NCBI RefSeq assembly: GCF_003991155.1 | Contig: NZ_CP031293.1 | Length of the DNA stretch: 64,000 nt | Reading direction: 5' to 3' (one strand) | Origin: Escherichia coli | GTDB taxonomy: Bacteria > Pseudomonadota > Gammaproteobacteria > Enterobacterales > Enterobacteriaceae | Part shown: piece by piece, positions 42,025 to 63,136 of the stretch | Numbering within the stretch: position 1 is the stretch's first letter | Layout: each line of letters starts with the position of its first letter | The notes under the pieces: model-generated | The model's input: the letters and a program-made list of their open reading frames with translations, nothing else | Told to the model about the DNA's origin: nothing | The model's database searches: none | Translations under genes and position numbers: made by a program

Positions 42025-42231
42025 ATATGCAATAATTAATTGCACTGCCCCGCCAGCTATAATCGCGGGGCTTCGTTTTTCAGGGATAACAAAACCCGAA
42101 ACTTCTTCCATCTGCCAGCAACAATGCCTCTTCCTCTATAGTGTTCTCCGGATCTACAGCATCCTGAAGTAGCGCGATGTACTCACTGGCTATCTGCCAT
42201 CAGAAAGTTAAAAACAATGTTTTTAACCTAT

Positions 42232-42260
42232 AAAAATGGCGCTGTATTTGCGCCATTTTT
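42232..42260. terminator. bidirectional intrinsic terminator between convergent ykgJ and yagU
   Basis: AAAAATGGCGC-TGTATTT-GCGCCATTTTT: hairpin flanked by A-run and T-run, so it works on both strands. Confidence 0.6.
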
Positions 42261-42273
42261 ATCATTCAATGCA

Positions 42274-45123: not shown

Positions 45124-45156
45124 GTGCTACGCGCGCGCGTACTTGTCCCGAAATAC
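45124..45156. repeat. copy 1 of repeat TGCTACGCGCGCGTACTTGTC..AAATA.CAG (contains palindrome ACGCGCGCGT)
   Basis: Near-identical to 46518-46550; related partial copies at 46755-46770 and 46807-46835. Confidence 0.6.
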
Positions 45157-45195
45157 CAGAAACCGCCAGCCAGAGGATGATTTCCCTCTGGTGGT

Positions 45196-45477: not shown

Positions 45478-45513
45478 TTCTGCCTCTCAGATTATATAGA
45501 TAAGCAAAAAGGT

Positions 45514-45634
45514 GTTGGTTCAGTTGGTTCAGTTGGTTCAATTTGTAAAGATCGTTGTTTTTATTGTGTTTTTTCTGAAATGTTGAACCAACATCAACTC
45601 ATTTTGAACCAACACAGCCCAGCTCTGAACCAAC
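45514..45634. repeat. iteron module A: 3 tandem GTTGGTTCA, AT-rich spacer, 3 copies of the complementary TGAACCAAC
   Basis: Copies at 45514-22, 45523-31, 45532-40 and complementary copies at 45584-92, 45605-13, 45626-34. Confidence 0.7.
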
Positions 45635-45736
45635 AACACAGCGATAGCTTTGTGATTGGTCCGTTATTTTCTGGCTGATATTTGAGCGTATAACAGTGTT
45701 ATACAGTGGTATACTGTATGGATATTACTCACTGAT

Positions 45737-46192
45737 ATGGTCTTTGCAATGAGCAAATCTAATCTGATCGCGTTCCGCATCCCATCTGAATTGCAGGATG
45801 AGTTTAATCGGTCTGTTCTCGCTTCTGGAGGGGATAAAACCTCCTGGCTTGTTGATGCGATTCGCATGAAGCTGGGACAGCCGGAAAAGTCTATTGATTC
45901 ACGAATGCTTGGGCTGGTGGAGCGCATGGAAAAAGCCGCTGCGTCGCTTATTGCCGGAAAGCCGAACATCCCACCAAAGCCATATAACGAAACGGCAGTT
46001 ATAAAGATCATTGCCGATACCATCCAACAGGGATTTGATAATGGGCGTGTGATAGCTGAACGGATCAATGAAGCAGGCTATCAAACAAAAGCTGGTAAAG
46101 CGTGGGATAAAGATATTTACAGCGCGTGGAAGCGTCAGGGAAGCAATGCTGAAAAGTTAAAAGCGGTGATTGATTGTAAGGTCAGCGTATAA
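45737..46192 (+). CDS. putative ribbon-helix-helix (CopG/Arc-like) DNA-binding protein with extended C-terminus (151 aa)
   Basis: N-terminal IAFRIPSELQDEFNRSV...KTSWLVDAIRMKL resembles an RHH beta-strand plus helix; start may be the Met at 45749. Confidence 0.45.
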   Translation: MVFAMSKSNLIAFRIPSELQDEFNRSVLASGGDKTSWLVDAIRMKLGQPEKSIDSRMLGLVERMEKAAASLIAGKPNIPPKPYNETAVIKIIADTIQQGFDNGRVIAERINEAGYQTKAGKAWDKDIYSAWKRQGSNAEKLKAVIDCKVSV

Positions 46193-46271
46193 ACATGAGT
46201 GCCCATTGGAAAGCTGCTTGGGCCAATACCTTTATACACCAGCAGGTGGTGACGATAGGTGAGGATTAGGC

Positions 46272-46493
46272 ATGAAAGGCAGAACGCCACACATTGAACA
46301 TCAAGCCAACCACTTCTCGGATGTTCGCAATGAGATGATTGCCATTCGCGGTGATATGCACGGCTTGGAGCGTCGAATTATTGATAAGATTGATGAAAAT
46401 AGAGATAAGGCCAGTGAAAATCAAAAGTGGATCATCGGCCTGTTGATTTTATCAATTCTTATCCCGCTACTTATCGCATTGGTCACAAAATGA
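46272..46493 (+). CDS. small tail-anchored membrane protein (73 aa)
   Basis: GAGGA SD; charged coiled-coil-like N-terminus and single C-terminal TM helix (WIIGLLILSILIPLLIALV). Confidence 0.5.
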   Translation: MKGRTPHIEHQANHFSDVRNEMIAIRGDMHGLERRIIDKIDENRDKASENQKWIIGLLILSILIPLLIALVTK

Positions 46494-46517
46494 ATATCCA
46501 ATGTGTATGCTGTCGAT

Positions 46518-46550
46518 GCTACGCGCGCGTACTTGTCGCAAAATATCAGG
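46518..46550. repeat. copy 2 of the ACGCGCGCGT-ACTTGTC repeat
   Basis: TGCTACGCGCGCGTACTTGTCGCAAAATATCAG, near-identical to copy 1. Confidence 0.6.
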
Positions 46551-46754: not shown

Positions 46755-46835
46755 CGTGCGCGTACTGGTCGGACGTAGTTGCAAAATTTTTTGCAACTGA
46801 TACCCCTCGCGCGCGTACTGGTCACGAAATTGGTG
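46755..46835. repeat. copies 3 and 4 (partial) of the GCGCGCGTACTGGTC repeat flanking palindrome GTTGCAAAATTTTTTGCAAC
   Basis: CGTGCGCGTACTGGTC at 46755-46770; CGCGCGCGTACTGGTCACGAAATTGGTG at 46807-46835; 20-bp perfect palindrome at 46777-46796. Confidence 0.5.
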
Positions 46836-47885: not shown

Positions 47886-50612
47886 CTATTCCCATTCGCT
47901 AACATCTTTCATGCCACTGAGGGTAGCTACAATCCCGGCCCTTGTCAGTTTCACGAATTCTTCAGCCCCAACGGCATCACGAATTGCTTTCATGGCAATT
48001 TTATTGGCCGAAAATCGTTTCTCTGCTGCGGCGATCGCTGCTGGTGATGCCCCTGCGCGCACTGCTTTTGTAGCTTCCTGAACGGCTTTCTCTATCGCAT
48101 ATCGACCACTTCTTGTCGCCCCAATCTTAGCCACAGCATTTCTTAGCGCGCCACCAGCAACCAAACCACTAATCGAACCAATTACACCACCGCCAAAGCC
48201 TCCAGCGATCGCACCTGACTGTTGAACTCCGTTCATAATCACGCCGACGATCTTTGGAAGGCCTGAATCGAGCGTTTTGAGAGCCTCAGTTGTTCTTCCC
48301 GTGCGCTCTACGTATCGCTGCGGTCTGGTACTGGCTTTAGCGAGTACACCGAACTCTTTCATCATTCTACCGAGATCTGGCGCATGACGACTGATGGCGT
48401 TTACATTCTGCTGGGTCATGAGCTTGGCAAAATACTGGATACCTGACTCTTCACCGATTCCTCCCTTCTCTCCCTGCGCCACAGCATGCTGAAGAATAGA
48501 TGCTATTGCAGGTTGGCGTTCTGCTTCCGGCAGCGCGGAGATAAGACGGTGAAAAGCTCCCGTTCCAGTGTTTGCGGATGCCTTAAGCGTATCGGCACCT
48601 TTTCTTACCATAGCGTCTGATGCGAGATCTCGACCAAAAACAGATTCGGCATTTTGTTTGGCGATAATGTAACTTTTAGAGAGATCGTTAGCTTTCTGCC
48701 ATTCTGTGAGGAAGTTTCCTTTTTCAGCCATGATGCGCATGTCATCAGTGATAGCTCTGCGCATTTCTCCGGCAATCCGGGCGGCATTGGCCTTACCTGC
48801 CCGGGTGTTTGCTTGTTCAGCATCAGCAAACTTAGCACGCCATGCCTTCATCCCGTCGAAGGTTATGCCGCCACCTTGGTTGTTGGCAGCCTGAAACTGT
48901 TTCATCTCCGGGCTGAGTGGAACATTGGCTGCTTTTTCTGCTTGGACGACAGCCATCCCATTACTCATTTTCATCCTTTCGCGTGGCATCGTGCTTCGCA
49001 GTTCTGCCCATGCCATATTCTCTGCTGTTTTCATATCACTGAGGCTCGCGATGATGCGCTCTTTAATTGCTGCGCTTTTTTCTGATGCGCTTCCAGACTC
49101 AGCACCGAAATCAGACAACTGCTTATTCAACTTTGAGGATATTTCATTGAAGGCCGTAAGGTGAGCATCCTGAACATTCCCAGGAGTTGATGCCAGAACA
49201 CCTTCTGCTTGGGCAATTCCACGACTACCTGAGCGCATTCCAGGCGTCAGGGTGTTGATATTAATACCAGTGATTTTCGCCGCCTTAGCGACATCATCTC
49301 TGACGTTTGATGCCTGCGATGCGATATGCTCTCGGCCTACGGCAGAACGCGCTGCTTTCGATACATCATTGGCGGTTTCCAGAGTATTTGCTGCCCCTAA
49401 CACATGGCCTGATTGATTTGTATTACTCCGCAATACATCTCGCATTACGTCACTGGCTGTCTGTCCGCTCTTTATTAAAGCGCGTGCTCCTAGCGATCCT
49501 GCTAGGCCAATACCTGTCTCTTTTGCTAGGTCTTCTGGGCTGATCTGCCCGTTCTTTTGGGCGTTCACCAATGTACCTGGCAGGTTTTCTGCCAACATAC
49601 TAGCCACCTTTGTGGCCGCACGTTCAGCACGTGGAGCGTTGGCAACTGAAGAAGCTGCGGTAGCTGCCTTTCCTGCACCTAATCCTGTAATAAGGTAAGG
49701 TGCTAGCTGCTCACCAGCCTGCGCGTATGGATCTGTAGGTTGGTCTACTGGGCGAAAGACAGGTGATATGGGCGTGTATGTGCCATCACCCACACCAAGC
49801 TTCTGAGCTGCCCATGCTCCGGCTGATTGCGCCGCATTGACTACCCCCACGCCTGCGTCCATTACATCAAACGGTATATTAGCAATCCCTCTGGCCATCT
49901 GCTCTGGCGCAGCTTTCAGTCCTGGCGAAAGATATTCCATCTCAGGATTAAGGTTAGACTTGGCTACTTGCTGCTGCGGTTCCCCGGCATTTTCATCGGC
50001 GAGAAACTGAGCTCTTTTCTGCTCCCATGAACTGGCTGTTGGTAGTCCTGCTTCTATGTTCTTAAATTGCTGACGTTTTGCTTCCCATGCAGAAATATCT
50101 CCCACCTGAGAGATTTCTTTATCAAGCTCTGAGTAGTCAGGCTGCTGAAGATTGCGATGTTGACTGGTTTGTGCAAACTGCAAGATTTCACTGTCATCAG
50201 GGATTATTCCGGCATCTGCAAATTTACTTACGTAATTAGCCGTTTCATCTGGCAGTGTAGATTTACCGTTTCTGACGGCATTAATACGAGCATAGCCAGA
50301 ATTATACCCAGCCAATGCCATACCTATATCACCAAATCGCTTCATTCCTTTATTGAGATGGTTTGCTGCGATATCCATTTGCTTTTCAAATGGCAGTGAG
50401 CGCGGATCTGTTCCACGATAACCAGCATCACTCATTACTGAGGGCATCAGTTGAGCAAATCCTCTAGCTCCTTTCGGTGACTCGGCACTTCCGTTACCAC
50501 TAGATTCATTGCCAACTAATGTTTCCATCGTCCCTGATGGGAAACCATATTTTTCATCGAGATGACGGGAATAGGCTTTCTGTTTTTCTGTCAGTTGTGC
50601 CATCATTGCCAT
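47886..50612 (-). CDS. large protein (908 aa) with N-terminal lytic transglycosylase (SLT) domain and long alpha-helical Ala/Lys-rich body
   Basis: SLT motifs near N-terminus (GNESSGN...ESPKGARGFAQLMP...ALAGYNSGYARI); start overlaps upstream gene stop. Confidence 0.8.
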   Translation of the reverse strand: MAMMAQLTEKQKAYSRHLDEKYGFPSGTMETLVGNESSGNGSAESPKGARGFAQLMPSVMSDAGYRGTDPRSLPFEKQMDIAANHLNKGMKRFGDIGMALAGYNSGYARINAVRNGKSTLPDETANYVSKFADAGIIPDDSEILQFAQTSQHRNLQQPDYSELDKEISQVGDISAWEAKRQQFKNIEAGLPTASSWEQKRAQFLADENAGEPQQQVAKSNLNPEMEYLSPGLKAAPEQMARGIANIPFDVMDAGVGVVNAAQSAGAWAAQKLGVGDGTYTPISPVFRPVDQPTDPYAQAGEQLAPYLITGLGAGKAATAASSVANAPRAERAATKVASMLAENLPGTLVNAQKNGQISPEDLAKETGIGLAGSLGARALIKSGQTASDVMRDVLRSNTNQSGHVLGAANTLETANDVSKAARSAVGREHIASQASNVRDDVAKAAKITGININTLTPGMRSGSRGIAQAEGVLASTPGNVQDAHLTAFNEISSKLNKQLSDFGAESGSASEKSAAIKERIIASLSDMKTAENMAWAELRSTMPRERMKMSNGMAVVQAEKAANVPLSPEMKQFQAANNQGGGITFDGMKAWRAKFADAEQANTRAGKANAARIAGEMRRAITDDMRIMAEKGNFLTEWQKANDLSKSYIIAKQNAESVFGRDLASDAMVRKGADTLKASANTGTGAFHRLISALPEAERQPAIASILQHAVAQGEKGGIGEESGIQYFAKLMTQQNVNAISRHAPDLGRMMKEFGVLAKASTRPQRYVERTGRTTEALKTLDSGLPKIVGVIMNGVQQSGAIAGGFGGGVIGSISGLVAGGALRNAVAKIGATRSGRYAIEKAVQEATKAVRAGASPAAIAAAEKRFSANKIAMKAIRDAVGAEEFVKLTRAGIVATLSGMKDVSEWE

Positions 50613-51922
50613 CCCTTAAGTTTTGCCTGATAGTAACTTTCCGGCAGATAGCCATGTGCGGTCACATAATCCTTAACCAGTGAAGGATCCTGCAACAGCA
50701 TTTTGGTATCAGTTTCTTCGTCCTTAGATTTGGTTACAGGAATACCGAGCCCGGCAATCTGTCGTTTCTGCATTCGAATAATTACGTCCTGCGCTTTATT
50801 CAACTCTCGCAAAAATGCCTCATTGCTGGTTGCTGACTTAATGCCATTTTGAGATTGCATAAGGGCAGCCCTTTCCCCTTCGGTTGGGTTAGAGCCAAAA
50901 GTCCCTTTGAGGCTAGGCAGAATAACCTTTAGGTTGTATTCATCAGCTTTGGCGCGTAGGCTTCGTGTGTCTTCTGCTACATCAGGAAGGAATCCAAACC
51001 CCAGCGTCAGGGGGTTATAGTTCTGCGAGCGGGTAACGGCCGAAGGATGTTTCCCTACAATTCCCGCCAGTTCATGACCCACTTCAAGCGCAGAGTTCAA
51101 GGAGTCGATGTTACCTACAACAGTATTAATTTTATCGTTCATCTTCTCCACTTTCGCCTGCTGTACCTTGCTCAGTTCAGCATTGAGCTTGTCTCTCTCG
51201 ATGTCATTTTGAGCACGTCCAAGTCGTGCTTTCAGAACCATTTCTCTCGTGCGTAGTTGGTTATCGGATAGGACTTTGAACTGCTCCATATCGAGACGTC
51301 GATTACCCTGTTCCGCATTAACCTGAGCATTATATGCGGATGTATCTGCGTTCTGCTGTGCAATGCTCTGCCCTTGCTGCTTCTCTTGAACACTAAAGTA
51401 ACTATTTGGATCAGCATGGAGGTGGATGAGGTCAGTGATTCTGTTGAATTCCTGTGGGTCATTCTGCCAAGACTGATAAACCTCTTCAGCAGGAAGACCA
51501 AATCGCTGTAATACTGGATTTGCCTGCTGAATGGCCTTCTGCATGGTCAGTGGATCTCCAGTTTGTGACGCAAGACGCAGATTCATGGCAGCGTCAGCGG
51601 TCTGTCGATTTTGCTCAGCATCAATGAATCCCATCTGTTTTTGAGAATCAGCCATAAACTGGGGATACTGGGCCATTAACTTCTGCACGCCAACACGATC
51701 ATTATTAGCTACCGCACTACCCAACCGTGCCTGATATTCTTTTAACTGCTGGGAAATTTGCGCCTGCTGATTAATCTCAGCAACGCCTCTTAGCCCCTGT
51801 AGCGCCATTAAACCTACGTTTGGCTGCTGCTGATACTGCACAGGCTGAGGAACGGAAGAACGAGGAGCATTATCATTTTGCGGTGCCATGCTAGGCAGCC
51901 CGCCAAGTTGCCATGTCGCCAT
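50603..51922 (-). CDS. Gln-rich coiled-coil protein (439 aa), co-transcribed with the SLT protein
   Basis: Long ORF, translationally coupled on both sides; Q/A/N-rich helical composition. Confidence 0.7.
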   Translation of the reverse strand: MATWQLGGLPSMAPQNDNAPRSSVPQPVQYQQQPNVGLMALQGLRGVAEINQQAQISQQLKEYQARLGSAVANNDRVGVQKLMAQYPQFMADSQKQMGFIDAEQNRQTADAAMNLRLASQTGDPLTMQKAIQQANPVLQRFGLPAEEVYQSWQNDPQEFNRITDLIHLHADPNSYFSVQEKQQGQSIAQQNADTSAYNAQVNAEQGNRRLDMEQFKVLSDNQLRTREMVLKARLGRAQNDIERDKLNAELSKVQQAKVEKMNDKINTVVGNIDSLNSALEVGHELAGIVGKHPSAVTRSQNYNPLTLGFGFLPDVAEDTRSLRAKADEYNLKVILPSLKGTFGSNPTEGERAALMQSQNGIKSATSNEAFLRELNKAQDVIIRMQKRQIAGLGIPVTKSKDEETDTKMLLQDPSLVKDYVTAHGYLPESYYQAKLKGWQ

Positions 51923-52599
51923 TAGAATCCAAGCCCCCCAACAAGACCAATAAGCCCACCACCAATAGCGCCGGCCGCAGTTCCTATTCCAGGAACAACG
52001 GAACCAAGTTGCGCACCCGCTAAAGCGCCTGATGCTGCCCCACCAATACCACGCGCAAGACTGGATGGCTGCTGCGCCTGACCTGCACGAATAGCGCCAA
52101 GCCCCTGCAAGAGTTGTCCGGTATTATTGGCGTAGTTTTGCCCTGCCGTTGCCTGCCCTGATGCCGCATTCATCCCGACATTTAGCAGGTTTCCATAATT
52201 TTGCATTTGCCCACTAAGCCAATTGTTATAAAGCATGGGCGCAATGGAAGATAACTGGTTACTGGTAGCTGTTGAGCCAAGCCCCCCGGTAGCTTCTGCT
52301 GAGACAAGGTTCTGATAACGGGCCTGATCTGCCTGTGTTTTATATAAACCAGAACCAAAGAAATCATTCGCGGCTTTATTCTGCCCTTCCAGAGTCATCA
52401 GTCCTTGCAGTTGTTGTAAAGCAGGCAATCCGACTTCTGCATACGGCTTGAGATTATTCATCACCGTATTCCACTGCTCGCGCTGCAAATCAATTGCCTG
52501 CTGCTGGGCCTTCGCCTGAGCTTTAGAGGCACCACCATCACCGCCTTTTTCGTATACGGCACGATTGAGATGTTTATGAGCTATATGGGTAATTAACAT
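51922..52599 (-). CDS. Gly-rich protein (225 aa) with C-terminal Gly/Ala hydrophobic tail
   Basis: C-terminus GIGGAASGALAGAQLGSVVPGIGTAAGAIGGGLIGLVGGLGF; coupled to neighbours. Confidence 0.65.
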   Translation of the reverse strand: MLITHIAHKHLNRAVYEKGGDGGASKAQAKAQQQAIDLQREQWNTVMNNLKPYAEVGLPALQQLQGLMTLEGQNKAANDFFGSGLYKTQADQARYQNLVSAEATGGLGSTATSNQLSSIAPMLYNNWLSGQMQNYGNLLNVGMNAASGQATAGQNYANNTGQLLQGLGAIRAGQAQQPSSLARGIGGAASGALAGAQLGSVVPGIGTAAGAIGGGLIGLVGGLGF

Positions 52600-53054
52600 T
52601 CGCTGAATTCCTTATATTGTTGCCGAGTTAACTGATAAAGCGTTACGCCGACGGGTTTACCACATCTGATATAAGCATCATCAAGGTGACCAACACGGGT
52701 AGCGCCAAGCAAACGGATAATTGCCCGTCCATATTTTGTGGTGTCAGGAACCATAGTGATGCTGTTAAGGAATGGTGAGTTTTCGAGAAGCCATTTGCAG
52801 AATAATCGATGCCCTTGCAGTGCATATTCACCACGGAATCCGGGGTCGTACACCGCATGGCATTCAACAACGCTATGCCAGAAGTTACGCACTTCATGAA
52901 CGCCAGCCAGCACTAATCCTTCGTAGATGCCGAGATATACCGCATCAGGCTTGATGTAGTACGTGTGCCCCGGCTCAACAATATTTTCGGTATTGCCTGG
53001 CTCGTTAAGAAAGGCCTGTAATCGCACAGGGTTATCAATAAATTTTAGTTCCAT
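52593..53054 (-). CDS. hypothetical protein (153 aa), first large gene of the SLT operon
   Basis: ORF overlapping the downstream gene start; no recognised motif. Confidence 0.6.
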   Translation of the reverse strand: MELKFIDNPVRLQAFLNEPGNTENIVEPGHTYYIKPDAVYLGIYEGLVLAGVHEVRNFWHSVVECHAVYDPGFRGEYALQGHRLFCKWLLENSPFLNSITMVPDTTKYGRAIIRLLGATRVGHLDDAYIRCGKPVGVTLYQLTRQQYKEFSEC

Positions 53055-53681: not shown

Positions 53682-53792
53682 GTCGGTTCAAAATACCGTG
53701 TTGTTGGTTCAGTGTTGGTTCAATAAAAAGAATAAAATCCTTATAAAACAATACACTTTACAAATTGAACCAACTGAACCAACTGAACCAAC
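53682..53792. repeat. iteron module B: inverted, diverged copy of module A
   Basis: GTCGGTTCA 53682-90, GTTGGTTCA 53704-12 and 53714-22, then tandem TGAACCAAC at 53766-74, 53775-83, 53784-92; spacer begins with reverse complement of the module A spacer (ATTTGTAAAG). Confidence 0.7.
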
Positions 53793-53817
53793 ACCTTTTC
53801 TACGCACATGAAGAAGC

Positions 53818-56577
53818 TCATTCTTCAGATGAGTTATAATCTCCTGGCTGGTAATTGAGTACATAAACGTTTATTTGTCGTCCCTGAATACGTGGTGATT
53901 TTCTTTGGTATCCACGACCGCTGTTTGGTGGGGTTAGCATCCCGGCTTTTTTCAACACTTCAGCAAACTGTTTTGCGTTGAAACCACATGCGATCTCCTT
54001 TTCAAATGTGGCCGGGAATGTGTAGAAAATCATTGGGCTTTCGTCATGTTCTCCACGCTGACGGTATCCGGCTAAATCTTTGATGGGCAAATCTGCCGGG
54101 CTGTATGGAAATGGTGCAAAACGGCTAAGCCCATAGGCATTAAGAAATGCCTCCGTTTGTTCAATAATCTGCTGATGCTCTTTGTTACCTGTGCCGAACT
54201 CGCGCAACCATGCGTTATAGCTGTGCTGTATCGCATCACGGCATGTCTGAGCATCCCAGCCTGTTACAACCTCGCCTAACAACAATGCGGCCTCCAGAAT
54301 GGCAAATCGCGCGGCTACACGGTGAACCTGCTCACCATAATCGGATGGGATCAGGCTTCTCCATCTGCTTTCGCAATCACGAACGGTTTTAATAGCCTGT
54401 TGCTGGTGGTGTGCCAGCCATTTAATCCACTCACGCCCGGACGCGCCGTGGTGATGCTGGTAAGCGTCTTTCAGTGCGTCTGCGTGCTGTTTTCCGTTCT
54501 GGTAATCGTGAAAGCGTACTGCTTTACTCAACGGAATATTCAGCAGTCGCACCAGTTGCCCGGCTTTGGTTTTTCGCCCGGAAGTAGCGATAAATGTTTC
54601 TAAATCCATTTCTCCGGTGCTGATTGCCACTGTACGCCAGCGTTTTAGATCCCGGTTTCCACCATCTTTAGCGCCTTGCAGTTTCCCTACACCGTTAAAT
54701 AACGCATAGGCAGACTGTGAAACGCTGACAGGATCAGCGCCCTGACCAACTTCATCAAGCGGCATTAGTCCGTCATTGTGGGCGGCGGCCTCATTTGCCA
54801 GCCCCAGCGCGGTTCCGTACCACGTCAGCCGCAGTAAATCAGGGTTGCCGTATAAGCTGCTCGCCACGTTTGCCGTGGTGGTCTTACCTGCGCTCGACTG
54901 CTCATAGAAATGAATGCCGAACCCGTCAGCGCCCACCAGCCCAATCAATGGCGCTGCCAGTGCTGCGCCGATCCCGGTCATCATTGAATAGTTACCAAAG
55001 GCCAGACGCGCCACGTTATCACGCCAGCTTTTCGCGCTCCCTGAGACGGTATATCCGGCTGCGGCTGAGCTTCTCCCGCTGAACAGCACAGGATTTTCAG
55101 GTGTTCCGATGATTTCCCCATCAGGCATGATGTACGCTCCGCATTGCCAGCCAGTGGCATGAGCAACACGCCACAATTCACGAGAGCCACTGCGTTGTAG
55201 CCAGTCTGCCAGTATTGCTCTGAGGCTGCTTTTGGTCGTGACATTTACCCCACCAGCTTTAAGTGTGCGCCATCCTTCACGTTCACCAATATCAGCCAGT
55301 GGAATGGCAGCGGTTGTCGGCGTTTCAGAACCAAACGACAGCCAGCGAAGAATGAGATACTGGTCTTTATCGTCTCTGCCAGTACCGATAACGCTTAACG
55401 GAGAACATAACCAGCTTTCGTTATTGATGATTTCTCCACTCTGGCTGTCAGCTCTCGGAGATACCCAATAAATACCATCCTCGCGGCTTTCTATTCTTGG
55501 TTTCAGTGGGTCGGTATCCATAACCTTAAAATCGCTTCCCTCAATGGTCTGTGGCTCCTGTTTCACGCCATTACCCTGTGGTTGGTACATTGACTTATTG
55601 AACGCTTCTGTGGCGCATTTAATGCCGTGTTTTTGGTGGTAATCATTCCAGTCTGCTTTGTGATCTGTCGGGGGTAATGCCACCCATCCAGAAACAGATA
55701 AAGCTGCTTTTTCTGCTGCTATTCTCCCCGTGTTTTGTCTTCCTTCGCTGTGGTCGTTATCCGCAGCAATGATGATTTGTGCTGAAGGAAATTTATCCCG
55801 CAGTACCTGGGCGACATATAACAGGTTCCCGGCATCAATCGCCGCCACTGTCAGCGCCTCTGGACGAATTAAATGGGCAGATAATGCCGTTGCCAGACCT
55901 TCTGCGATTAAGATGCTCTGTGTTGTTTCTGGTGCGTTTATGGCGTGATATGCCCCCCGCTTTGCTGAACCTGTCAGGAGTCTTTTTTCACCATGTGAGG
56001 TAATAGTCTGTGCTGCTGTGACTGCGCCGGATTTATCCACCAGCGCCAGCAACAGAGATCCATCGGGCAACACGGGGAATGTAAAATCACCTACCCCTTT
56101 CGCAACCAGATAATCAGATTTGCCGTTTACAGCCTTTCTGCGCATGTCATCAAACTGACGGGAAAACGTATCCCGTCTTTGTTGTTCGTCCTTCTCTGCC
56201 CTTTTCAGGCGCTCCTGTTCGCGTCGCTGGCGCTCGGTTTCCAGTTGTTCCCGTTTCTGGCTGGTGGCTTCTGGTGTTTCCGTTGTCCGGTAATCAATAC
56301 CCAGAACATCAGCGGCAAGAAGCGCCGCCTCTGTTGTGTCGCAGTTATTTACGCGTTTAATTAAATCCAGCCCATCACCAGCGCCGCACTGATTACAGAT
56401 GAAGCTACCGCGCCCGTTGTCATCGAACCGGAATCGATCTTTGCCCCCACATGCAGGGCAGGGAGCATGACGGCGCGGAGAGTCAGGGACATTTATGTTC
56501 AGGCAGCCCAGCACATGAGGCCAGTTGTTTTCAGACGCACTGATAACCTGACGGATAAGATCAATGTTTCGCATCAC
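53818..56577 (-). CDS. primase-helicase (P4 alpha-like): N-terminal zinc-ribbon primase plus C-terminal P-loop helicase/NTPase
   Basis: 919 aa; zinc ribbon CPACGGKDRFRFDD...CNQCGAGDG; Walker A YEQSSAGKTTT. Confidence 0.85.
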   Translation of the reverse strand: MMRNIDLIRQVISASENNWPHVLGCLNINVPDSPRRHAPCPACGGKDRFRFDDNGRGSFICNQCGAGDGLDLIKRVNNCDTTEAALLAADVLGIDYRTTETPEATSQKREQLETERQRREQERLKRAEKDEQQRRDTFSRQFDDMRRKAVNGKSDYLVAKGVGDFTFPVLPDGSLLLALVDKSGAVTAAQTITSHGEKRLLTGSAKRGAYHAINAPETTQSILIAEGLATALSAHLIRPEALTVAAIDAGNLLYVAQVLRDKFPSAQIIIAADNDHSEGRQNTGRIAAEKAALSVSGWVALPPTDHKADWNDYHQKHGIKCATEAFNKSMYQPQGNGVKQEPQTIEGSDFKVMDTDPLKPRIESREDGIYWVSPRADSQSGEIINNESWLCSPLSVIGTGRDDKDQYLILRWLSFGSETPTTAAIPLADIGEREGWRTLKAGGVNVTTKSSLRAILADWLQRSGSRELWRVAHATGWQCGAYIMPDGEIIGTPENPVLFSGRSSAAAGYTVSGSAKSWRDNVARLAFGNYSMMTGIGAALAAPLIGLVGADGFGIHFYEQSSAGKTTTANVASSLYGNPDLLRLTWYGTALGLANEAAAHNDGLMPLDEVGQGADPVSVSQSAYALFNGVGKLQGAKDGGNRDLKRWRTVAISTGEMDLETFIATSGRKTKAGQLVRLLNIPLSKAVRFHDYQNGKQHADALKDAYQHHHGASGREWIKWLAHHQQQAIKTVRDCESRWRSLIPSDYGEQVHRVAARFAILEAALLLGEVVTGWDAQTCRDAIQHSYNAWLREFGTGNKEHQQIIEQTEAFLNAYGLSRFAPFPYSPADLPIKDLAGYRQRGEHDESPMIFYTFPATFEKEIACGFNAKQFAEVLKKAGMLTPPNSGRGYQRKSPRIQGRQINVYVLNYQPGDYNSSEE

Positions 56578-56932
56578 CGTACCCCACGTGGTCTATAGCG
56601 TTTGCGATATGGCTAACCAGCATCTGCCACTTGGTTATTCCGTAATCAGTCAGCATGCCATCATTGTTTAGCCACATATCAAATTCAGCGGTTGTCGCAA
56701 GTTTCCACTTATCGCCGTGGACAGTCCTCATTGCTGGGTACATGAATGCGCAAATCAGATCACAAACATCTGACGGCTTCAGAGATGTAGTAATGGTGCG
56801 TCCCTCTGGCGTCTGAATTGCCATTTTCTCTTCACCAGTAGAATGAAGGTTATGAATCCACACAGCACCAGCAATCTTTGCCACCTGCTCTCCGATTGCG
56901 GAGCTAAGCGCCATTTCTGCATTTTCACGCAT
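56561..56932 (-). CDS. hypothetical protein (123 aa), overlaps primase start
   Basis: ORF in coupled chain; 3' end overlaps primase start by 17 nt. Confidence 0.55.
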   Translation of the reverse strand: MRENAEMALSSAIGEQVAKIAGAVWIHNLHSTGEEKMAIQTPEGRTITTSLKPSDVCDLICAFMYPAMRTVHGDKWKLATTAEFDMWLNNDGMLTDYGITKWQMLVSHIANAIDHVGYGDAKH

Positions 56933-57266
56933 GAGAACCTCCCGCTACAGTTGCGCCCATGTCATTAACCATGCTTTGCCATATCTCACGCCCGACGTCA
57001 GTCAATCCGTCCTTAGTGACGCAACGTTCAAGAAGCTCGATCCCCACGGTTTCCCACTGCGGGTAGAACACTTTCATGGCTGCCAGTGTGTAGCTATCGA
57101 TCAGGCTGCGAACGCCTTTTACTCCATTGACGATTTCCACACGGACGGCCTCGCCGTCCGCATCAACCATGAAATAGTCCCCGCCGCTGGTGGAGGTAAT
57201 GTGGTTATACAGTGCCGACGCATACTTATTTGCCAGCGCATTCAGTCGGAAATTTTTAGTAATCAT
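56925..57266 (-). CDS. hypothetical protein (113 aa)
   Basis: ORF in coupled chain; 8-nt overlap with downstream gene. Confidence 0.55.
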   Translation of the reverse strand: MITKNFRLNALANKYASALYNHITSTSGGDYFMVDADGEAVRVEIVNGVKGVRSLIDSYTLAAMKVFYPQWETVGIELLERCVTKDGLTDVGREIWQSMVNDMGATVAGGSHA

Positions 57267-57276
57267 GGCTCCATCC

Positions 57277-57879
57277 TCAGTGCGTCACTGGTTCCGCTGG
57301 CATGCCGTTTTCATTCAGTTCAGCTATAAAGCTGTTGTGAAGTTCAGCAAGCGTTTCACGCCCAAATGGAGTCAGTGCTCCTTGTTCCACATCCATCATG
57401 GCTCTGTAGAAAATAATGGCGCGTTCTGTGCCAGACTCGATGCCAAAACGTTCTATCATCGCGCCCTCAATGTTGTTTGCCATAGCGAGGCGCTCTGCTA
57501 CTGGATACAGCGGCATGGCGACGATGCCGTTGGAATAAACAGCCACTTCGGAAGGATTGCCAGTATCATCAATGATGCTGACAGTGCCGTTTTCCTCTCT
57601 CATTTCCAGCATGAATACTGTTGCGATCAGCCATCTCCACATAATGACGTTATGCTGTGATGTGTAATCGAAATATCCCTGGTTACCGCCATCGGCAATA
57701 GCGAGATGTATTGACATACCTTCATCTGGTTTATCGTCATAATCCCCGGCATCCAGACGATTTACGGCATCAATATATGAGATGGCCTCAACGCGTTCTG
57801 TCATGCCATCGTTGCTGCGGTACATGATGTTTACGCCGTCAGGCGTTGCTTCTGCATGGAAAGTTAAGAAATTATTCAT
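57277..57879 (-). CDS. hypothetical protein (200 aa)
   Basis: ORF 57277-57984; start placed at MNNFLTFHAEA where ATG overlaps upstream stop (CATGAATAA). Confidence 0.55.
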   Translation of the reverse strand: MNNFLTFHAEATPDGVNIMYRSNDGMTERVEAISYIDAVNRLDAGDYDDKPDEGMSIHLAIADGGNQGYFDYTSQHNVIMWRWLIATVFMLEMREENGTVSIIDDTGNPSEVAVYSNGIVAMPLYPVAERLAMANNIEGAMIERFGIESGTERAIIFYRAMMDVEQGALTPFGRETLAELHNSFIAELNENGMPAEPVTH

Positions 57880-58093
57880 GTTTCGCCTCGCCTGAATGAT
57901 TCTGTAACTCATATTTGCCCAACAATTCGTCCGCTTCCTGAATAGCTTCTGGTACGCCATTGAGCAGTGACATAACCGCGCCAATCATTAACTTGTCTCT
58001 GTTGCTGGGGCTGGCCCCTTCAAGCCAGAACCCTAAAACAGTCTGAACCTGTTCGATGCGACATTGCGCTTCAATGAGCTGGATGTTGGTCAT
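57872..58093 (-). CDS. hypothetical small protein (73 aa)
   Basis: Start overlaps upstream stop (ATGA). Confidence 0.5.
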   Translation of the reverse strand: MTNIQLIEAQCRIEQVQTVLGFWLEGASPSNRDKLMIGAVMSLLNGVPEAIQEADELLGKYELQNHSGEAKHE

Positions 58094-58353
58094 TTCGCAC
58101 TCTCCACATCGATTAAACCGATATCTATCAGGGAGGTAACTTTTTGTAGCCAGCTATTGATTACTGTCGCCTGTTCCCCTCCCACCGAGGGAACAATCTC
58201 ATTCATCACATGAACCAGACCTGTGCGCGCTCTGGTAAGCCGTTCAGTCGCGCAATCTGCGGGAGTGAATGTGTCTGGATATGGCTCTTCACGCCCCAGC
58301 AATGATTCAATTTCCAGCTCACACGGATGACGATAAATTAAGTTGATATTCAT
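58090..58353 (-). CDS. hypothetical small protein (87 aa)
   Basis: Start overlaps upstream stop (ATGA). Confidence 0.5.
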   Translation of the reverse strand: MNINLIYRHPCELEIESLLGREEPYPDTFTPADCATERLTRARTGLVHVMNEIVPSVGGEQATVINSWLQKVTSLIDIGLIDVESAK

Positions 58354-58544
58354 TTTTCACCCCCAAGAATTACCAGCTCGGCACGGGCATCGTTAACCAA
58401 AGATGAGCACGCTTTAATCGCATCCACGACATCAGCAGCGTCCATTTCTTCAGCCGAAAGACTGACAGCAACCAGGACAGCCGCTGCTTGCTCGATTAAT
58501 TGAAGTGCGGACGTAAGTCGAGGGGCATTAATTGAGTTATTCAT
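58350..58544 (-). CDS. hypothetical small acidic protein (64 aa)
   Basis: ORF 58350-58601; start placed at [10 protein letters not shown] with G-rich SD; overlaps upstream stop by 8 nt. Confidence 0.5.
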   Translation of the reverse strand: MNNSINAPRLTSALQLIEQAAAVLVAVSLSAEEMDAADVVDAIKACSSLVNDARAELVILGGEK

Positions 58545-58755
58545 TGGTTGCCCCCGTTTTTCCTGGCATTTCGCCACCTTCCAGCAGGAAATGAACGTCA
58601 CGAACGGCGAGATCCAATATCGCGAGTAACGCCTTCAGTCTTTCGTCTCGTGAGGGAGAGTTGCTCACCAGAATGTCGTTAATCACTTCTGTCAGTGTGA
58701 TGATCTGGCTTGTGCGTTCGAGGGGATCCATATGCACATCGTAGGTTTTAATCAT
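58537..58755 (-). CDS. hypothetical small protein (72 aa)
   Basis: Start MIKTYDV preceded by GGAGG (6-nt spacer); ATG overlaps stop of the 58748-58942 ORF; in frame with the long 58537-59604 ORF. Confidence 0.5.
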   Translation of the reverse strand: MIKTYDVHMDPLERTSQIITLTEVINDILVSNSPSRDERLKALLAILDLAVRDVHFLLEGGEMPGKTGATNE

Positions 58756-59604
58756 GAGCCACCTCCATGCGGATACGACCAGCAAAAAAGCAGACGTGAT
58801 CGCGCACCAGAGAACGGCGAGCATCGCGTTCAGACTCGGCAGCAATATGATGAATTTTGGCGGTAATTGTCGAGCAATCGCGGCGAACTGCGGCGATAAT
58901 CCAGATAAATTGCGGTTTTTGGGTAGGGGTAGTAGCCAGCATGTGGCAGCCTCCATTCGATAGCATGTAACGCTACCACCGGAAACGCCAATTTCGCTGG
59001 TGGTAGCCCAGACAGGGTTGGCGTAACCGGCTCGAATGGATACCGGCGCTTCCGAAGAAGCCCCTGCCTGAGCCACCATTGATTGACAAAGGCGCTGGAT
59101 TATACACCAACGCCCAAAAAATGGGTGAGTCAGACCTACGACATAAAAAAAGACGCTCGGCGCGTCATATGTCGCCATTCGATTTACTAGGACGCCAATC
59201 CCGGCACCCGTTTTATGAGGTGCCTTATAACCATAAACCGTGTTGCCGCATAACGGCAAGCTCTTTTTTATGGACTCCGAAAACTCGCTATTGGAAGCAC
59301 CAGATGCACAGTACATCGCGCTCATTTCGTTAACGTCACGCGCGTGGACGAATGTTTTTGTGGAGTCACTACACGAGCGGAAGACATCATCTACGACCAG
59401 AAATTTTCTGGCGCAGCCGCTGACCTTCTCAATGCTAATATCATCGCCCGAGATTTCTGATATGGTTAAGGCATCCGTTCCGACCACCAGCAAATGATAA
59501 ACTTTGCTTGTATCTGCTGTATTAATGCCTGACTTTGCCGTCATATTGCTGGATTTTGGCGACATACCAGCCAGTGAAAATGTCTTCTTCTGGACGGTTA
59601 GCAT
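58537..59604 (-). CDS. long open frame (355 aa) from a GGAGG-preceded ATG at 59604; likely real only in its N-terminal about 210 aa, possibly frameshifted
   Basis: No in-frame stop until 58537 although two SD-preceded small genes lie inside or overlapping it; the middle of the translation is low-complexity. Confidence 0.3.
58748..58942 (-). CDS. hypothetical small protein (64 aa)
   Basis: Start MLATTPTQ preceded by GGAGG (7-nt spacer); alternative frame relative to the long ORF. Confidence 0.45.
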   Translation of the reverse strand: MLATTPTQKPQFIWIIAAVRRDCSTITAKIHHIAAESERDARRSLVRDHVCFFAGRIRMEVAHD

Positions 59605-59780
59605 TTGTTAACCTCCGCGAACTCCTTCATGAAACGCGCCAGCGGTTGTACGCATGGCGATTGATACCCGTCGCGATAAAACGTCACTCGGTTGTGAGAC
59701 ACGCTTTCGACAGTAACGAGTGCTCCGTGGGCATCTTTGTAGCGTTTTTGTGGTTGTGGTGTTCCTGTTGGCTTAGACAT
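59598..59780 (-). CDS. hypothetical small protein (60 aa)
   Basis: ORF 59598-59867; start placed at MSKPTGTPQ with GGAGG SD; overlaps antirepressor-like gene end and next gene start. Confidence 0.5.
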   Translation of the reverse strand: MSKPTGTPQPQKRYKDAHGALVTVESVSHNRVTFYRDGYQSPCVQPLARFMKEFAEVNKC

Positions 59781-60606
59781 TGACCACCTCCAGACGCTTG
59801 GCGAGCCAGCGTTGCGACAGGCGGGTGAGTTCTCCTTTGCGCTGCTCATATTCCATGCCCATATCAATTAACGTGATATTGGTGCTTTCGAGATATGAGA
59901 GGTGCTCAAGCTGTTCTGCGTTCATATGGTCGCGAGGTTCGCCAGAATAGCCATTTATCCGCGCCCACTGCTTAGCAGTTAGCCCACCAAGAACGATACG
60001 AGAAATCATATTGCTCTCGTTTGTGTAGTGGTGTTGCTGCGTCGTTTTACCCATCTCGGCACGGGCCATATTCAGCGCATCGCACATTGGCTTAAAGTTG
60101 TTTGCGGCACTGAGACGGGCTTTTAGCTGGCGACGATAGCGGGCGGCGATTTCAGGCACGCTACGCTGTAATTCTTCCTCGCACTGGATGAAATAACGGC
60201 GGATAGCGCGACCCTGATCATTGCGTTCGATCATTGCCAGTTCTTTCGCCATTCCGACACTTAACAGATAGTCTTTGCCGGGTCTGCCAGAGTGCTTTAT
60301 CTTGCTGTAAGCCGCGCCATTCGGGCTTTTCCCCAAATTTGGGGAAATTGTTTTATGGACTGAGTAATCGTGCCCAATGGTGAAGTCATATTCAGAGATG
60401 CGATCAGTGATCCATGTAGAGAAGTCTTTTCCCACGCCCAACGCTTTGTGTAACGCTTTTGCGCTAACAATATTGGTTTCACGCCCACCGATATGACCAG
60501 GAATAACCGGGACAATTGCGGCAAATTCATTACCGTTAATTGTGCTCAGAGAGGCGTTCAGATGAGGGGCGGCCTCAGAAATTAATCTGCTTTTTTCGAT
60601 GTTCAT
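59773..60606 (-). CDS. phage antirepressor-like protein (Rha/Ant-type N-terminus with KilA-C-like domain)
   Basis: 277 aa; KilAC-like motif DYLLSVGMAKELAMIERNDQGRAIRRYFIQCEEEL; GGAGA SD. Confidence 0.65.
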   Translation of the reverse strand: MNIEKSRLISEAAPHLNASLSTINGNEFAAIVPVIPGHIGGRETNIVSAKALHKALGVGKDFSTWITDRISEYDFTIGHDYSVHKTISPNLGKSPNGAAYSKIKHSGRPGKDYLLSVGMAKELAMIERNDQGRAIRRYFIQCEEELQRSVPEIAARYRRQLKARLSAANNFKPMCDALNMARAEMGKTTQQHHYTNESNMISRIVLGGLTAKQWARINGYSGEPRDHMNAEQLEHLSYLESTNITLIDMGMEYEQRKGELTRLSQRWLAKRLEVVNV

Positions 60607-60618
60607 TTTCAGTCTCCG

Positions 60619-61050
60619 TTAGGCGGCGTTAAACGCGTCCGGGTAGAGTTTCAGAATGTCGGCAATTTCCTGCTGAGAAAGTCCGTTGTGATCATTTATG
60701 TTCGCAAGATGGTTAATATGAGTGATCACTTTCAGAACATCACCACGGCAGGAGAAACGGTAGCGAAGGTGTGTTCCGATACCATCAGGATTCTTTTCGT
60801 CGATACGCTCCAGAGTGATTCCAAGCTGGCGTTCTAACTCTGTTGCATAGTTACGACCAGAAGACAGACGGCAGTAGCGAAGAATGTCATTTTCTGTCCA
60901 TCCCTCTATACCAGTACGCAGCATATAGACTCTGGCACGATGCTTTTTCGGTGTGCGCTTTGGTGCTTGAAGGGATTTTGTAAGGGGCGTAACATCAGAT
61001 ACACGAATATCTGAATTAGCCGCCTGTAATGGGCGGTTTTTCTTTTCCAT
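60619..61050 (-). CDS. hypothetical protein (143 aa) translationally coupled to alpA
   Basis: ATG overlaps alpA stop (TGATG); GAGGT SD. Confidence 0.55.
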   Translation of the reverse strand: MEKKNRPLQAANSDIRVSDVTPLTKSLQAPKRTPKKHRARVYMLRTGIEGWTENDILRYCRLSSGRNYATELERQLGITLERIDEKNPDGIGTHLRYRFSCRGDVLKVITHINHLANINDHNGLSQQEIADILKLYPDAFNAA

Positions 61051-61253
61051 CAGGCCACCTCGTCTCTAGATTCTAATATACACTTCTCAATCCATTCATC
61101 TATTTCAGACTCAACAAAAGCAATTGCCCGACTTCCAATTTTTACCTGTTTAGGGAACCTCCCCTGACTAATAAGACGATAAATCCATGCTTTGCTATAA
61201 CCAGTTCGCCTTTGAACTTCAGAGAGACGAATTAATGAATTGTAATTAGCCAT
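61050..61253 (-). CDS. alpA: AlpA-family phage regulatory protein / excisionase-like (67 aa)
   Basis: MANYNSLIRLSEVQRRTGYSKAWIYRLISQGRFPKQVKIGSRAIAFVESEIDEWI: typical AlpA/MerR-like HTH. Confidence 0.8.
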   Translation of the reverse strand: MANYNSLIRLSEVQRRTGYSKAWIYRLISQGRFPKQVKIGSRAIAFVESEIDEWIEKCILESRDEVA

Positions 61254-61680
61254 TTATTAATATCCTGTACTAATGACGCAATAACCCCCTCCTGCAACGA
61301 ATGGCGAGAGTTTTATTTGCGTCAAATGTCGAATACGCCAAAGACCACAATATGAAAAACATATTGCGGTCTTTTATAAAAGATAGTCAGATTGTTTTGG
61401 TTTGTTTGCTCCACAAGGGTAGAGCTACCCTGCATTTCGGCAGGATCACGCTATTAGGCGTGACATCCAGTAGTTTTAAAGAACAATTGCGCTTTGTCAG
61501 CGCCAAAGCCTGTTAAAGAACATTCCGCTTTTCAGCAGCGTAGAAGGCTCAATACACCTTCGTTTATAAAAGAGCGATTGCCCTTCTCCAGGGCTAACTG
61601 TTAAATAGCAATCCTCTGTGAGTTTTTATCAATCTACTCCCCTATACTTTAGTAAACCTCTGTATACTTGTCCAGTTGTT

Positions 61681-63060: not shown

Positions 63061-63136
63061 TGGTGCCGATAATAGGAGTCGAACCTACGACCTTCGCATT
63101 ACGAATGCGCTGCTCTACCAACTGAGCTATATCGGC
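63061..63136 (-). tRNA. thrW: tRNA-Thr (anticodon CGU)
   Basis: Reverse complement is GCCGATATAGCTCAGTTGGTAGAGCAGCGCATTCGTAATGCGAAGGTCGTAGGTTCGACTCCTATTATCGGCACCA: 7-bp acceptor stem, D, anticodon and T arms fold; anticodon CGT; encoded CCA. Confidence 0.95.

Follow-up and report, generated by a model that had tools for sequence, protein, structure and literature searches.

Why should almost every gene in the early region of a mobile island start within a few nucleotides of the preceding stop? This question is raised by a 64,000-nt stretch of Escherichia coli DNA (contig NZ_CP031293.1; the whole stretch is referred to below as the window), in which a chain of small genes leads from the regulatory gene alpA to a primase gene. 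These genes make up the early/replication operon of a phage-inducible chromosomal island (PICI) of the EcCIMP1 type, which has already been described; the copy in the window is 98.3% identical at the nucleotide level, over 16.7 kb, to EcCIMP1 of E. coli MP1. We propose that this operon follows the plan of the left operon of satellite P4, with two expression modes and an RNA-based immunity switch, and we regard this model, as a whole, as probable. In a switch that works by translation and termination, an untranslated gap would be a liability, which could explain the almost gapless chain; the tight coupling would then be part of how the immunity switch operates.

Gene chain and RNA genes

All coordinates refer to the window, and every gene of the chain is on the minus strand (Table 1). 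Gene starts were set by reading the sequence, and the annotation of the NCBI pipeline (PGAP) was taken from an identical copy of the island. Using the primase as bait, we collected 80 related loci with primase identities of 52-100%; individual loci are designated by L and a number. A first-pass annotation of this stretch had placed about eleven genes between alpA and the primase, and exactly 11 protein genes were counted, namely orf143, the AntA/B-like gene, the DUF4222 gene, an icd-like gene, orf72, orf64, orf87, orf73, orf200, orf113 and orf123. The same annotation described a translationally coupled chain, and this description holds in part: there are overlaps of 1-14 nt at nine of the 12 junctions, but the series of conventional genes is broken by 655 nt (59597-58943) that hold two RNA genes. 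The chain is continuous, as an arrangement of predicted reading frames, once a 355-codon bridging open reading frame (ORF) is counted, the start of which overlaps the DUF4222 stop. The earlier statement that most of the genes have GGAGG-type Shine-Dalgarno sequences proved correct, with a GGAG or GAGG core 5-10 nt ahead of the ATG in nine of the 11 chain genes and GGGGG in place of this core in orf64 and orf87. The products were also rightly described as in several cases acidic: the isoelectric point (pI) is 4.2-5.6 for all seven ORFs after icd, and 8.9-9.5 (basic) for the four genes before the gap and for icd.

The first-pass annotation overlooked the central part of the chain, an RNA immunity module that comprises an IsrK-like RNA, a C4 RNA, the Icd-like gene and an eta-like ORF. 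The segments b' and a' of C4 are exactly complementary both to b1 and a1 within the IsrK-like RNA and to b2 and a2 downstream of C4, and b2 overlaps the Shine-Dalgarno sequence GGAGG of icd (58953-58949), 7 nt before the icd ATG (58942). The IsrK-like RNA ends in a terminator-like hairpin (59166-59152) that is followed by U7, and the 3' end of C4 carries a CCACCA that is conserved in the alignment. The C4 region has 75% DNA identity to the P4 cI region, and the Icd-like protein shares 43% identity with the kil region of P4 (the C-terminal part of the "cI ORF"; E 3e-9), with a ratio of nonsynonymous to synonymous substitution rates (dN/dS) of 0.11-0.21 for the gene. The features of a P4/P1-type immunity module found here are a C4 RNA, an IsrK-like RNA with target copies, a target at a ribosome-binding site, an Icd/Kil-like ORF and a coupled eta-like ORF. 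A putative promoter precedes the IsrK-like RNA; it is kept in most of 38 distinct loci and can be aligned with the sequence ahead of seqA in P4. The conserved hairpin with the TGTATAAT loop, located between the IsrK terminator and C4, shows compensatory changes in relatives and is deleted in three of them (L018, L032 and L060); a role as a second promoter or as a signal for processing is conceivable. By analogy with known systems, the RNA module would separate an upstream block induced by the helper from a downstream block gated by RNA.

Table 1. Features of the chain and its RNA module, listed from alpA toward the primase (negative distances are overlaps)
Feature	Position	Strand	Distance to next gene of chain (nt)	Remarks
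alpA (67 aa)	61050..61253	-	-1	AlpA/Vis-type helix-turn-helix (HTH) regulator; first gene of chain
orf143	60619..61050	-	+12	basic, pI 9.5; conserved beside alpA
AntA/AntB-type antirepressor-like gene, antAB (277 aa)	59773..60606	-	-8	AntA/AntB family name from PGAP
DUF4222 protein gene (60 aa)	59598..59780	-	+655	PGAP; phrog_285 match
eta-like "Ash" ORF (355 codons)	58537..59604	-		spans promoter, both RNA genes and icd (other frame); ends at orf72 stop
putative internal constitutive promoter (P4 PLE counterpart)	59230..59259	-		TTGCCG, 18-nt spacer, TATGGT; +1 near 59223
IsrK/seqA-like small RNA	59146..59223	-		Rfam RF01394, 60.5 bits (gathering score 50)
a1 site	59198-59192	-		TTGGCGT; inside IsrK-like RNA
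b1 site	59182-59175	-		TCGAATGG; inside IsrK-like RNA
hairpin	59091..59114	-		GGCGTTGG / CCAGCGCC, loop TGTATAAT; between IsrK terminator and C4
C4/CI-type antisense RNA	58996..59083	-		Rfam RF01695, 79.5 bits (gathering score 45)
C4 loop b' (nt 44-52)	59040-59032	-		window CCATTCGA; MP1 type CCTTGTAC
C4 segment a' (nt 60-66)	59024-59018	-		
a2 target	58991-58985	-		TTGGCGT; 7 nt exactly complementary to C4
b2 target	58960-58952	-		TCGAATGGA; 9 nt exactly complementary to C4
icd/kil-like gene (64 aa)	58748..58942	-	-8	NCBIfam NF033153, 69.7 bits (cut-off 25); predicted first C4-gated ORF; overlap ATGATTAA
orf72	58537..58755	-	-8	pI 4.8; coupled to icd; without PGAP annotation; dN/dS 0.15-0.32
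orf64	58350..58544	-	-4 (ATGA)	pI 4.2; few relatives have it; dN/dS 0.19
orf87	58090..58353	-	-4	pI 4.7; in about 15 distinct relatives
orf73	57872..58093	-	-8	pI 4.7; phrog_20558 (unknown-function family)
orf200	57277..57879	-	+10	pI 4.3; phrog_1515 (unknown-function family)
orf113	56925..57266	-	-8	pI 5.2; phrog_37628 (unknown-function family)
orf123	56561..56932	-	-14	pI 5.6; dN/dS 0.11; stop 14 nt inside primase gene
primase gene (TOPRIM/DUF927)	53818..56574	-		PGAP; last gene of coupled chain

Covariation of RNA sites and exchange of the cassette

IsrK-like elements were found in 42 and C4-like elements in 38 of the 80 related loci, and 35 distinct modules, P4 included, were aligned for analysis of covariation. 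There are at least 12 b sequences and four a sequences among these modules, and the three partners change together in every case. When the internal helices of C4 are taken together with a'-a2 and b'-b2, 99.6% of the cells are paired and 25 of the 42 pairs have changed on both sides, a result that was reached by none of 500 shuffles; slid registers give 30-49%. For the upstream sites (a1-a' and b1-b'), 99.8% of the cells are paired, with 13 of the 15 pairs changed on both sides, compared to 34-47% pairing in slid registers. The separate helices behave in the same way: a'-a2 is 100% paired (6/7 pairs changed on both sides) and b'-b2 is 98.2% paired (7/8), in both cases over 35 sequences with slid controls of 30-49%, and both-sided changes are seen in 12 of the 27 pairs of the internal C4 helices. 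Because the complementary sites co-vary three ways over 35 sequences, the comparison provides strong evidence, at the level of sequence, that the icd leader belongs with C4 and the IsrK-like RNA to a single system of interacting RNAs.

The window island was also compared with the MP1 copy of EcCIMP1 (L084). The two islands are 98-100% identical along their length, but only 57-79% identical in 58950-59250 and 91-92% in 59250-59550. The a/b specificities differ as well, being TTGGCGT / TCGAATGG in the window and TTCGCAG / GTACGAGG in MP1. The sharp drop of identity, confined to the RNA cassette, points to cassette replacement by recombination, and the different specificities of the MP1 copy suggest that the window island is probably a heteroimmune variant of EcCIMP1.

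This swap bears on another interpretation, in which the module is an activator circuit of the type described in Salmonella prophage Gifsy-1, i.e., a device for induction rather than immunity, where the IsrK-like RNA acts in trans on the read-through mRNA and turns on translation of the first ORF and the genes coupled to it. Such a circuit has been shown for isrK-orf45-anrP (PMC4825925), and the a1 and b1 sites of the IsrK-like RNA could titrate C4 or open the mRNA. However, the homologous P4 system works as immunity, according to PMC10111431, and heteroimmunity predicts just such a sharp exchange of specificity cassettes in islands with 98-100% identity elsewhere. Therefore, we consider a pure activator circuit rather unlikely. 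It should be noted that the two views are not exclusive, since the ratio of IsrK to C4 could set the state of the island. The IsrK-like RNA may thus help termination as a target in cis, like P4 seqA, or be an activating competitor in trans, as in Gifsy-1.

Bridging reading frame and predicted switch

A further line of evidence for a P4-type switch is the long frame that crosses both RNA genes. The eta-like ORF begins at an ATG (59604) that shares nucleotides with the stop of DUF4222 (ATGCTAA), and a GGAGG lies 7 nt upstream of this ATG; orf72 is nested in frame at the end of this ORF. Among 40 distinct relatives, the frame is open for 220-363 codons, past isrK in the upstream direction, in all 40, whereas the other two frames extend upstream of isrK in 0/40 and 1/40. 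Ahead of the promoter, the sequences of the ORF form at least four classes that are unrelated to one another, all of which are open. Irrespective of the identity of the preceding gene, its stop is overlapped by the first ATG of the ORF in 34 of the 40 loci, and a Shine-Dalgarno sequence is likewise present in 34 of 40. Two configurations exist: in one, found also in P4 eta/kil, the ORF shares the frame and the stop of icd; in the other, found in the window, it is shifted and ends 170-210 nt beyond the icd stop. By its sequence organization, the ORF of the window is the counterpart of P4 eta.

These observations are relevant to a rival explanation of the chain, namely that it is a plain early operon in which overlaps reflect genome compaction, the acidic proteins are effectors of host takeover, helper derepression or anti-defence, as proposed in the first-pass annotation, and the RNA module is incidental. 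The genes are real and lie in the early region of a satellite, as this explanation expects. However, compaction fails to explain why a frame of 220-363 codons stays open across two RNA genes at every one of the 40 loci, and why its start overlaps the upstream stop irrespective of the upstream gene. We give this explanation limited credence as an account of the whole locus; its bearing on the cargo proteins is considered below.

The same frame could, in principle, encode a functional protein of the Bro network, in which case the matches to RNA families would be secondary. Pfam Phage_ASH (PF10554) matches amino acids 124-232 of the ORF with E 6e-30, PGAP covers the region with the name "ash family protein" (flagged as a pseudogene), and the start is coupled and has a strong Shine-Dalgarno sequence. 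On the other hand, the Pfam domain corresponds to 59235-58909, which is exactly the RNA module, and the variation in this region keeps base pairing through three-way compensation and not the amino acids. The region upstream of the promoter belongs to the unrelated classes mentioned above, and the C-terminal part is in the icd frame at some loci and in another frame elsewhere. Furthermore, the "ash/cI" ORF of P4 is an early mis-call of the CI RNA gene; the old P4 record X02534 labels the cI region "put. ash gene". A functional Ash protein is thus improbable, and the labels Phage_ASH (Pfam) and "ash family protein" with the pseudogene flag (PGAP) mask two regulatory RNA genes.

The P4-type switch that we favor would have the following two states. 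At rest, as judged by homology, the PLE-like promoter (about 59259-59230) would drive an IsrK/seqA-like RNA kept short by a terminator of its own, and read-through transcripts would be processed into the C4/CI-like RNA. The a' and b' segments of C4 would pair with a2 and b2 and cover the Shine-Dalgarno sequence of the Icd/Kil-like gene, so that the coupled block from icd to the primase would be untranslated, presumably with Rho-dependent termination, and the island would not replicate. The IsrK-like RNA, with its decoy copies a1 and b1, could compete for C4. On induction, the helper would switch on the alpA promoter, as shown for EcCIMP1, and ribosomes would run from alpA through orf143, antAB and the DUF4222 gene into the 355-codon eta-like ORF. 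Translation of this ORF would cross the IsrK terminator, C4 and the targets and would render the transcript insensitive to C4, as expected from P4 eta; it would then go on via the stop/start overlaps to the primase, and the acidic cargo would be expressed only on induction. According to PMC10111431 (citing Forti 1999), translation of P4 eta occurs only from the late promoter that lies upstream and keeps CI RNA from imposing termination; the same paper summarizes the eta/kil/CI/seqA mechanism (citing Sabbattini 1995 and Forti 1999). The induction step draws on EcCIMP1, a PICI that excises, circularizes and transfers only with the P22-like helper Kapi1, in which alpA is needed for excision and transfer, and the alpA promoter is induced by Kapi1 and autoregulated by AlpA (PMC11773190). 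Helper induction and transfer are known for this 98%-identical island and would be expected, by homology, for the variant in the window.

Several points weigh against this model. The model takes from P4 its assumptions on promoter activity, on C4 processing (by RNase P/PNPase in modules of the P4/P1 type), on termination by Rho and on the translation of the eta-like ORF. The PLE-like promoter matches the consensus at only 8 of 12 positions and its activity is inferred; a consensus promoter scan returned six promoter-like sites, compared to 10.4 expected from shuffles, and the PLE-like promoter was not among them, but with such numbers the scan is not informative here. In the upstream part of the eta-like ORF (59604-59290), dN/dS is 0.36-0.50 with 26-28 substitutions, a value that neither proves nor excludes translation. 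The eta-like frame differs here from the icd frame, unlike in P4 eta/kil, and the arrangement therefore departs from the tested model. Finally, IsrK RNA in Gifsy-1 was shown to activate downstream translation rather than to mediate immunity (PMC4825925).

Cargo proteins, the island and known systems

Comparison of orf72, orf64, orf73, orf200, orf113 and orf123 to diverged homologues gave dN/dS values of 0.1-0.3, which indicates that these six ORFs are under purifying selection. The notion of the first-pass annotation that the small ORFs are genuine genes is thereby borne out wherever dS could be measured and was unsaturated (dN/dS about 0.1-0.3). For orf87, dS is saturated in diverged pairs and substitutions are too few in close ones; amino-acid identity in distant relatives is 52-54%. 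A decaying prophage remnant with spurious small ORFs might be suspected from the "ash" pseudogene and the many hypothetical proteins in the PGAP annotation, but it is hardly credible. The low dN/dS values of the small ORFs argue against decay. With a 5-kb query, at least a partial match is found in 1473 of 5426 complete E. coli genomes, and 348 of the 5426 have at least 80% of the query covered at one place; the 15 best matches are 99.8-100% identical. In addition, the 98%-identical EcCIMP1 is experimentally mobile.

The acidic ORFs behind the switch are exchangeable cargo that is present in some relatives and absent in others. There is a single small ORF between icd and the primase in L021, L024, L028, L032 and L060, where the distance from isrK to the primase is 651-684 nt, and there are about nine small ORFs before the primase in L034 (3313 nt). 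The most widespread cargo genes are orf200 and orf113, whereas orf72, orf64 and orf123 are rare. The earlier claim that no domains are recognizable apart from the antirepressor was too strong, given the DUF4222 protein (PGAP), the Icd-like protein (NF033153) and three genes that belong to PHROGs of unknown function. AlphaFold2 models, which were made for orf200 and orf113 only among the cargo proteins, are confident (pLDDT 90.5 and 91.5, respectively), and no solved structural relative was found for either protein. The orf200 product has an N-terminal beta domain and, at its C-terminus, a domain similar to orf113 and orf123. A collinear alignment of orf113 and orf123 covers 93-97 columns with 21-23% identity and weak statistics, and orf123 is probably a tandem paralogue of orf113. 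Thus, a domain common to three consecutive genes ahead of the primase (the C-terminus of orf200, orf113 and orf123) is probable, although not proven. By hhalign (98%), the orf87 product has a relative in the N-terminal half of family F28. The small helical proteins of orf72, orf64, orf87 and orf73 look like tandem paralogues by eye, but this reading was rejected: family-level hhalign of orf64, orf87 and orf73 gave probabilities of 3% or less, and orf72, compared by pairwise BLASTP only, gave E values of at least 0.59.

With regard to function, the plain-operon explanation has some appeal for the cargo: acidic pI and small size fit many anti-defence and DNA-mimic proteins, the cargo varies among relatives as accessory genes do, and members of the orf200 family also occur in the early genes of genuine temperate phages, e.g., phiP27 L06, Stx phages, Klebsiella prophages and Aeromonas phage AsXd-1. 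However, no characterized effector was matched: in searches of PHROGs, NCBIfam and PADLOC, which did not include a dedicated anti-defence library, no ORF of the chain resembles a known protein for anti-defence, takeover or derepression of the helper. The PADLOC output was not credible, with only a weak PDC-S22 match on the C-terminus of the AntA/B-like protein and a chance-level CARF match on orf64, and profile searches of the PDB with the orf200, orf113/123 and orf143 families gave nothing below E 0.19. Relatives of orf200 in the AlphaFold database are all uncharacterized prophage proteins of Enterobacterales. By BLASTP and tblastn, the cargo ORFs show no homology to P4 epsilon, cnr or orf151. 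As regards the cargo, an effector function is compatible with the RNA-switch model, and roles related to the helper or accessory to replication are most likely, by analogy to the positions of P4 epsilon and cnr. Homologues of orf200 lie among small uncharacterized genes at 4941-5579 in phiP27 (L085) and at 3938-4516 in Aeromonas phage AsXd-1 (L086), and some database homologues bear the implausible label "2-polyprenylphenol hydroxylase".

The genes at the two ends of the chain are more readily assigned. PGAP annotates alpA as an HTH regulator under the same protein id as in EcCIMP1, and the protein is 40% identical to P4 Vis/ORF88. Between int and alpA, ahead of the latter, there is an imperfect AT-rich palindrome (61355-61398), a candidate regulatory site for the helper-induced alpA promoter. 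The adjacent orf143 is present in most related loci with 49-85% identity and dN/dS of 0.07-0.14; it has no family match in NCBIfam, PHROGs or PADLOC, and no PDB match in a profile search. The AntA/B-like protein matches anti-repressor families of PHROGs (e.g., phrog_5817, E 2e-37). At the other end, the N-terminal 335 aa of the primase are 33% identical to P4 alpha (E 4e-43). A 55-nt inverted repeat has one arm (53745-53799) 19 nt past the primase stop and the other (45507-45561) 8.2 kb away, near the PerC-like gene. The arms are 93% complementary, and each contains three tandem GTTGGTTCA / TGAACCAAC units; the repeat resembles the two iteron-bearing cis sites of P4 (ori and crr) and may be the replication origin of the island.

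The island is inserted at tRNA-Thr(CGU) (63061-63136), adjoining proA, and shows the layout of Gram-negative PICIs, i.e., the order int-alpA-...-primase, a tRNA site, a length of about 15-20 kb and no capsid or lysis genes in the PGAP annotation. The idea that position and format are typical of satellite early genes is well founded, in that EcCIMP1 has been shown experimentally to be a PICI. Downstream of the primase, on the minus strand (47886-53054), there are a DUF2824 gene, a gene for a phage DNA ejection protein and a gene for a 908-aa lytic transglycosylase, as in P22-like phages; ejection proteins are unusual cargo for a satellite, and the presence of P22-type ejection genes in a PICI fits the P22-like helper Kapi1. 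The distal island contains three copies of a CGCGCGCGTACTTGTC-type motif (45132-45159, 46522-46549 and 46808-46835), which may be regulator sites, and past the distal end there is a match to the Rfam IS009 RNA (42067-42268, minus strand, 191.7 bits).

If the model is true, the covarying specificity types amount to a panel of orthogonal pairs of RNA repressor and target, and the experimentally tractable EcCIMP1 gains a concrete regulatory model. The variable small proteins, which on the model are made on induction only, are candidates for helper manipulation or counter-defence. As a tentative synthesis that we hold with much less confidence than the switch itself, the island would carry an RNA-gated acidic payload that manipulates the P22-like helper or host defences, and the IsrK/C4 cassette would serve as a swappable RNA "barcode", by which satellites that compete or share a host could escape each other's immunity. 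The payload, including the undescribed domain of orf200 (C-terminus), orf113 and orf123, may be released only when the eta-like ORF carries ribosomes through the gate.

Among known systems, immI of phages P1 and P7 reportedly has a C4 RNA with recognition segments a' and b', with a1/b1 upstream and a2/b2 downstream, b2 being at the icd ribosome-binding site; the genes past icd are said to be translationally coupled to icd. The window shares C4 with a' and b' and the paired upstream and downstream targets, and membership of the Rfam C4 family was tested in the window. The difference is in what is gated, which is an antirepressor in P1/P7 and a cargo block with the primase in the window. Assignment to the P1 immI operon was rejected: instead of ant downstream of icd, the AntA/B-like gene is upstream of the RNA module, and seven unrelated ORFs and the primase are downstream. 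With Gifsy-1 the island shares an IsrK small RNA with its own terminator and translational coupling to downstream genes. In that system, read-through into the small ORF region yields a stable downstream RNA, STnc1160, and IsrK has been described as a structural homologue of P4 seqA (PMC4825925). Gifsy-1 differs in being a prophage rather than a satellite, in activation by IsrK, and in a downstream antirepressor that leads to AntQ expression.

Gram-negative PICIs with a "Bro zone" that carries CI/seqA homologues have the same four-zone layout (Integration, Bro, Replication and Late), and several of them match the Rfam C4 and isrK models, according to PMC10111431; that survey contains no analysis of specificity covariation, of open-frame conservation or of the cargo between icd and the primase. 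EcCIMP1 itself has the same integration site (tRNA-Thr beside proA), the same gene order from int to the PerC-like gene and several identical proteins, and differs in the replaced IsrK/C4 cassette (58950-59250) and in about 0.9 kb near 45614-46513 that fails to align with MP1. The MP1 neighborhood that corresponds to 45614-46513 holds a second AlpA-like gene, alpA_1. The genes of the chain are labeled antirepressor, Ash family and hypothetical in the description of EcCIMP1, in which small RNAs and Icd are not mentioned (PMC11773190).

The plan of the operon is that of the left operon of P4 (PLL-vis-eta/kil with seqA-CI-seqC, then epsilon-orf151-cnr-alpha). Both have, in this order, AlpA/Vis, a long ORF over the RNA genes, a seqA-like site, a CI/C4 RNA, a target at the ribosome-binding site of a Kil/Icd-like gene, small genes and the primase. 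The RNA module has 75% DNA identity to that of P4, P4 obeys the covariation pattern, and kil/icd, vis/alpA, the N-terminus of alpha/primase and int are homologous. When the entire window was searched with the P4 proteins by tblastn, the only matches were to int (42.5% identity) and to the N-terminus of alpha; pairwise BLASTP added vis/alpA. The island lacks homologues of sid, delta, psu, epsilon, cnr and orf151, and it was rejected as a P4-like satellite by core genes (int, alpA, alpha, epsilon, sid, delta and psu), since sid, delta, psu and epsilon are absent. It further differs from P4 in having orf143, antAB and the DUF4222 gene between alpA and the long ORF, in a long ORF that is out of frame with icd and nested with orf72, in the DUF927-type C-terminus of the primase, and in the helper, which is P22-like for the EcCIMP1 type and P2-like for P4. 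The kind of system and the island are known, and the proposed RNA switch is a further P4-type case in a published PICI. What appears to be undescribed is the breadth of the three-way covariation of specificity, the fact that PICIs universally conserve the bridging ORF and have it in two frame configurations, the variable block of cargo genes that this ORF gates, and the probable triplicated domain ahead of the primase.

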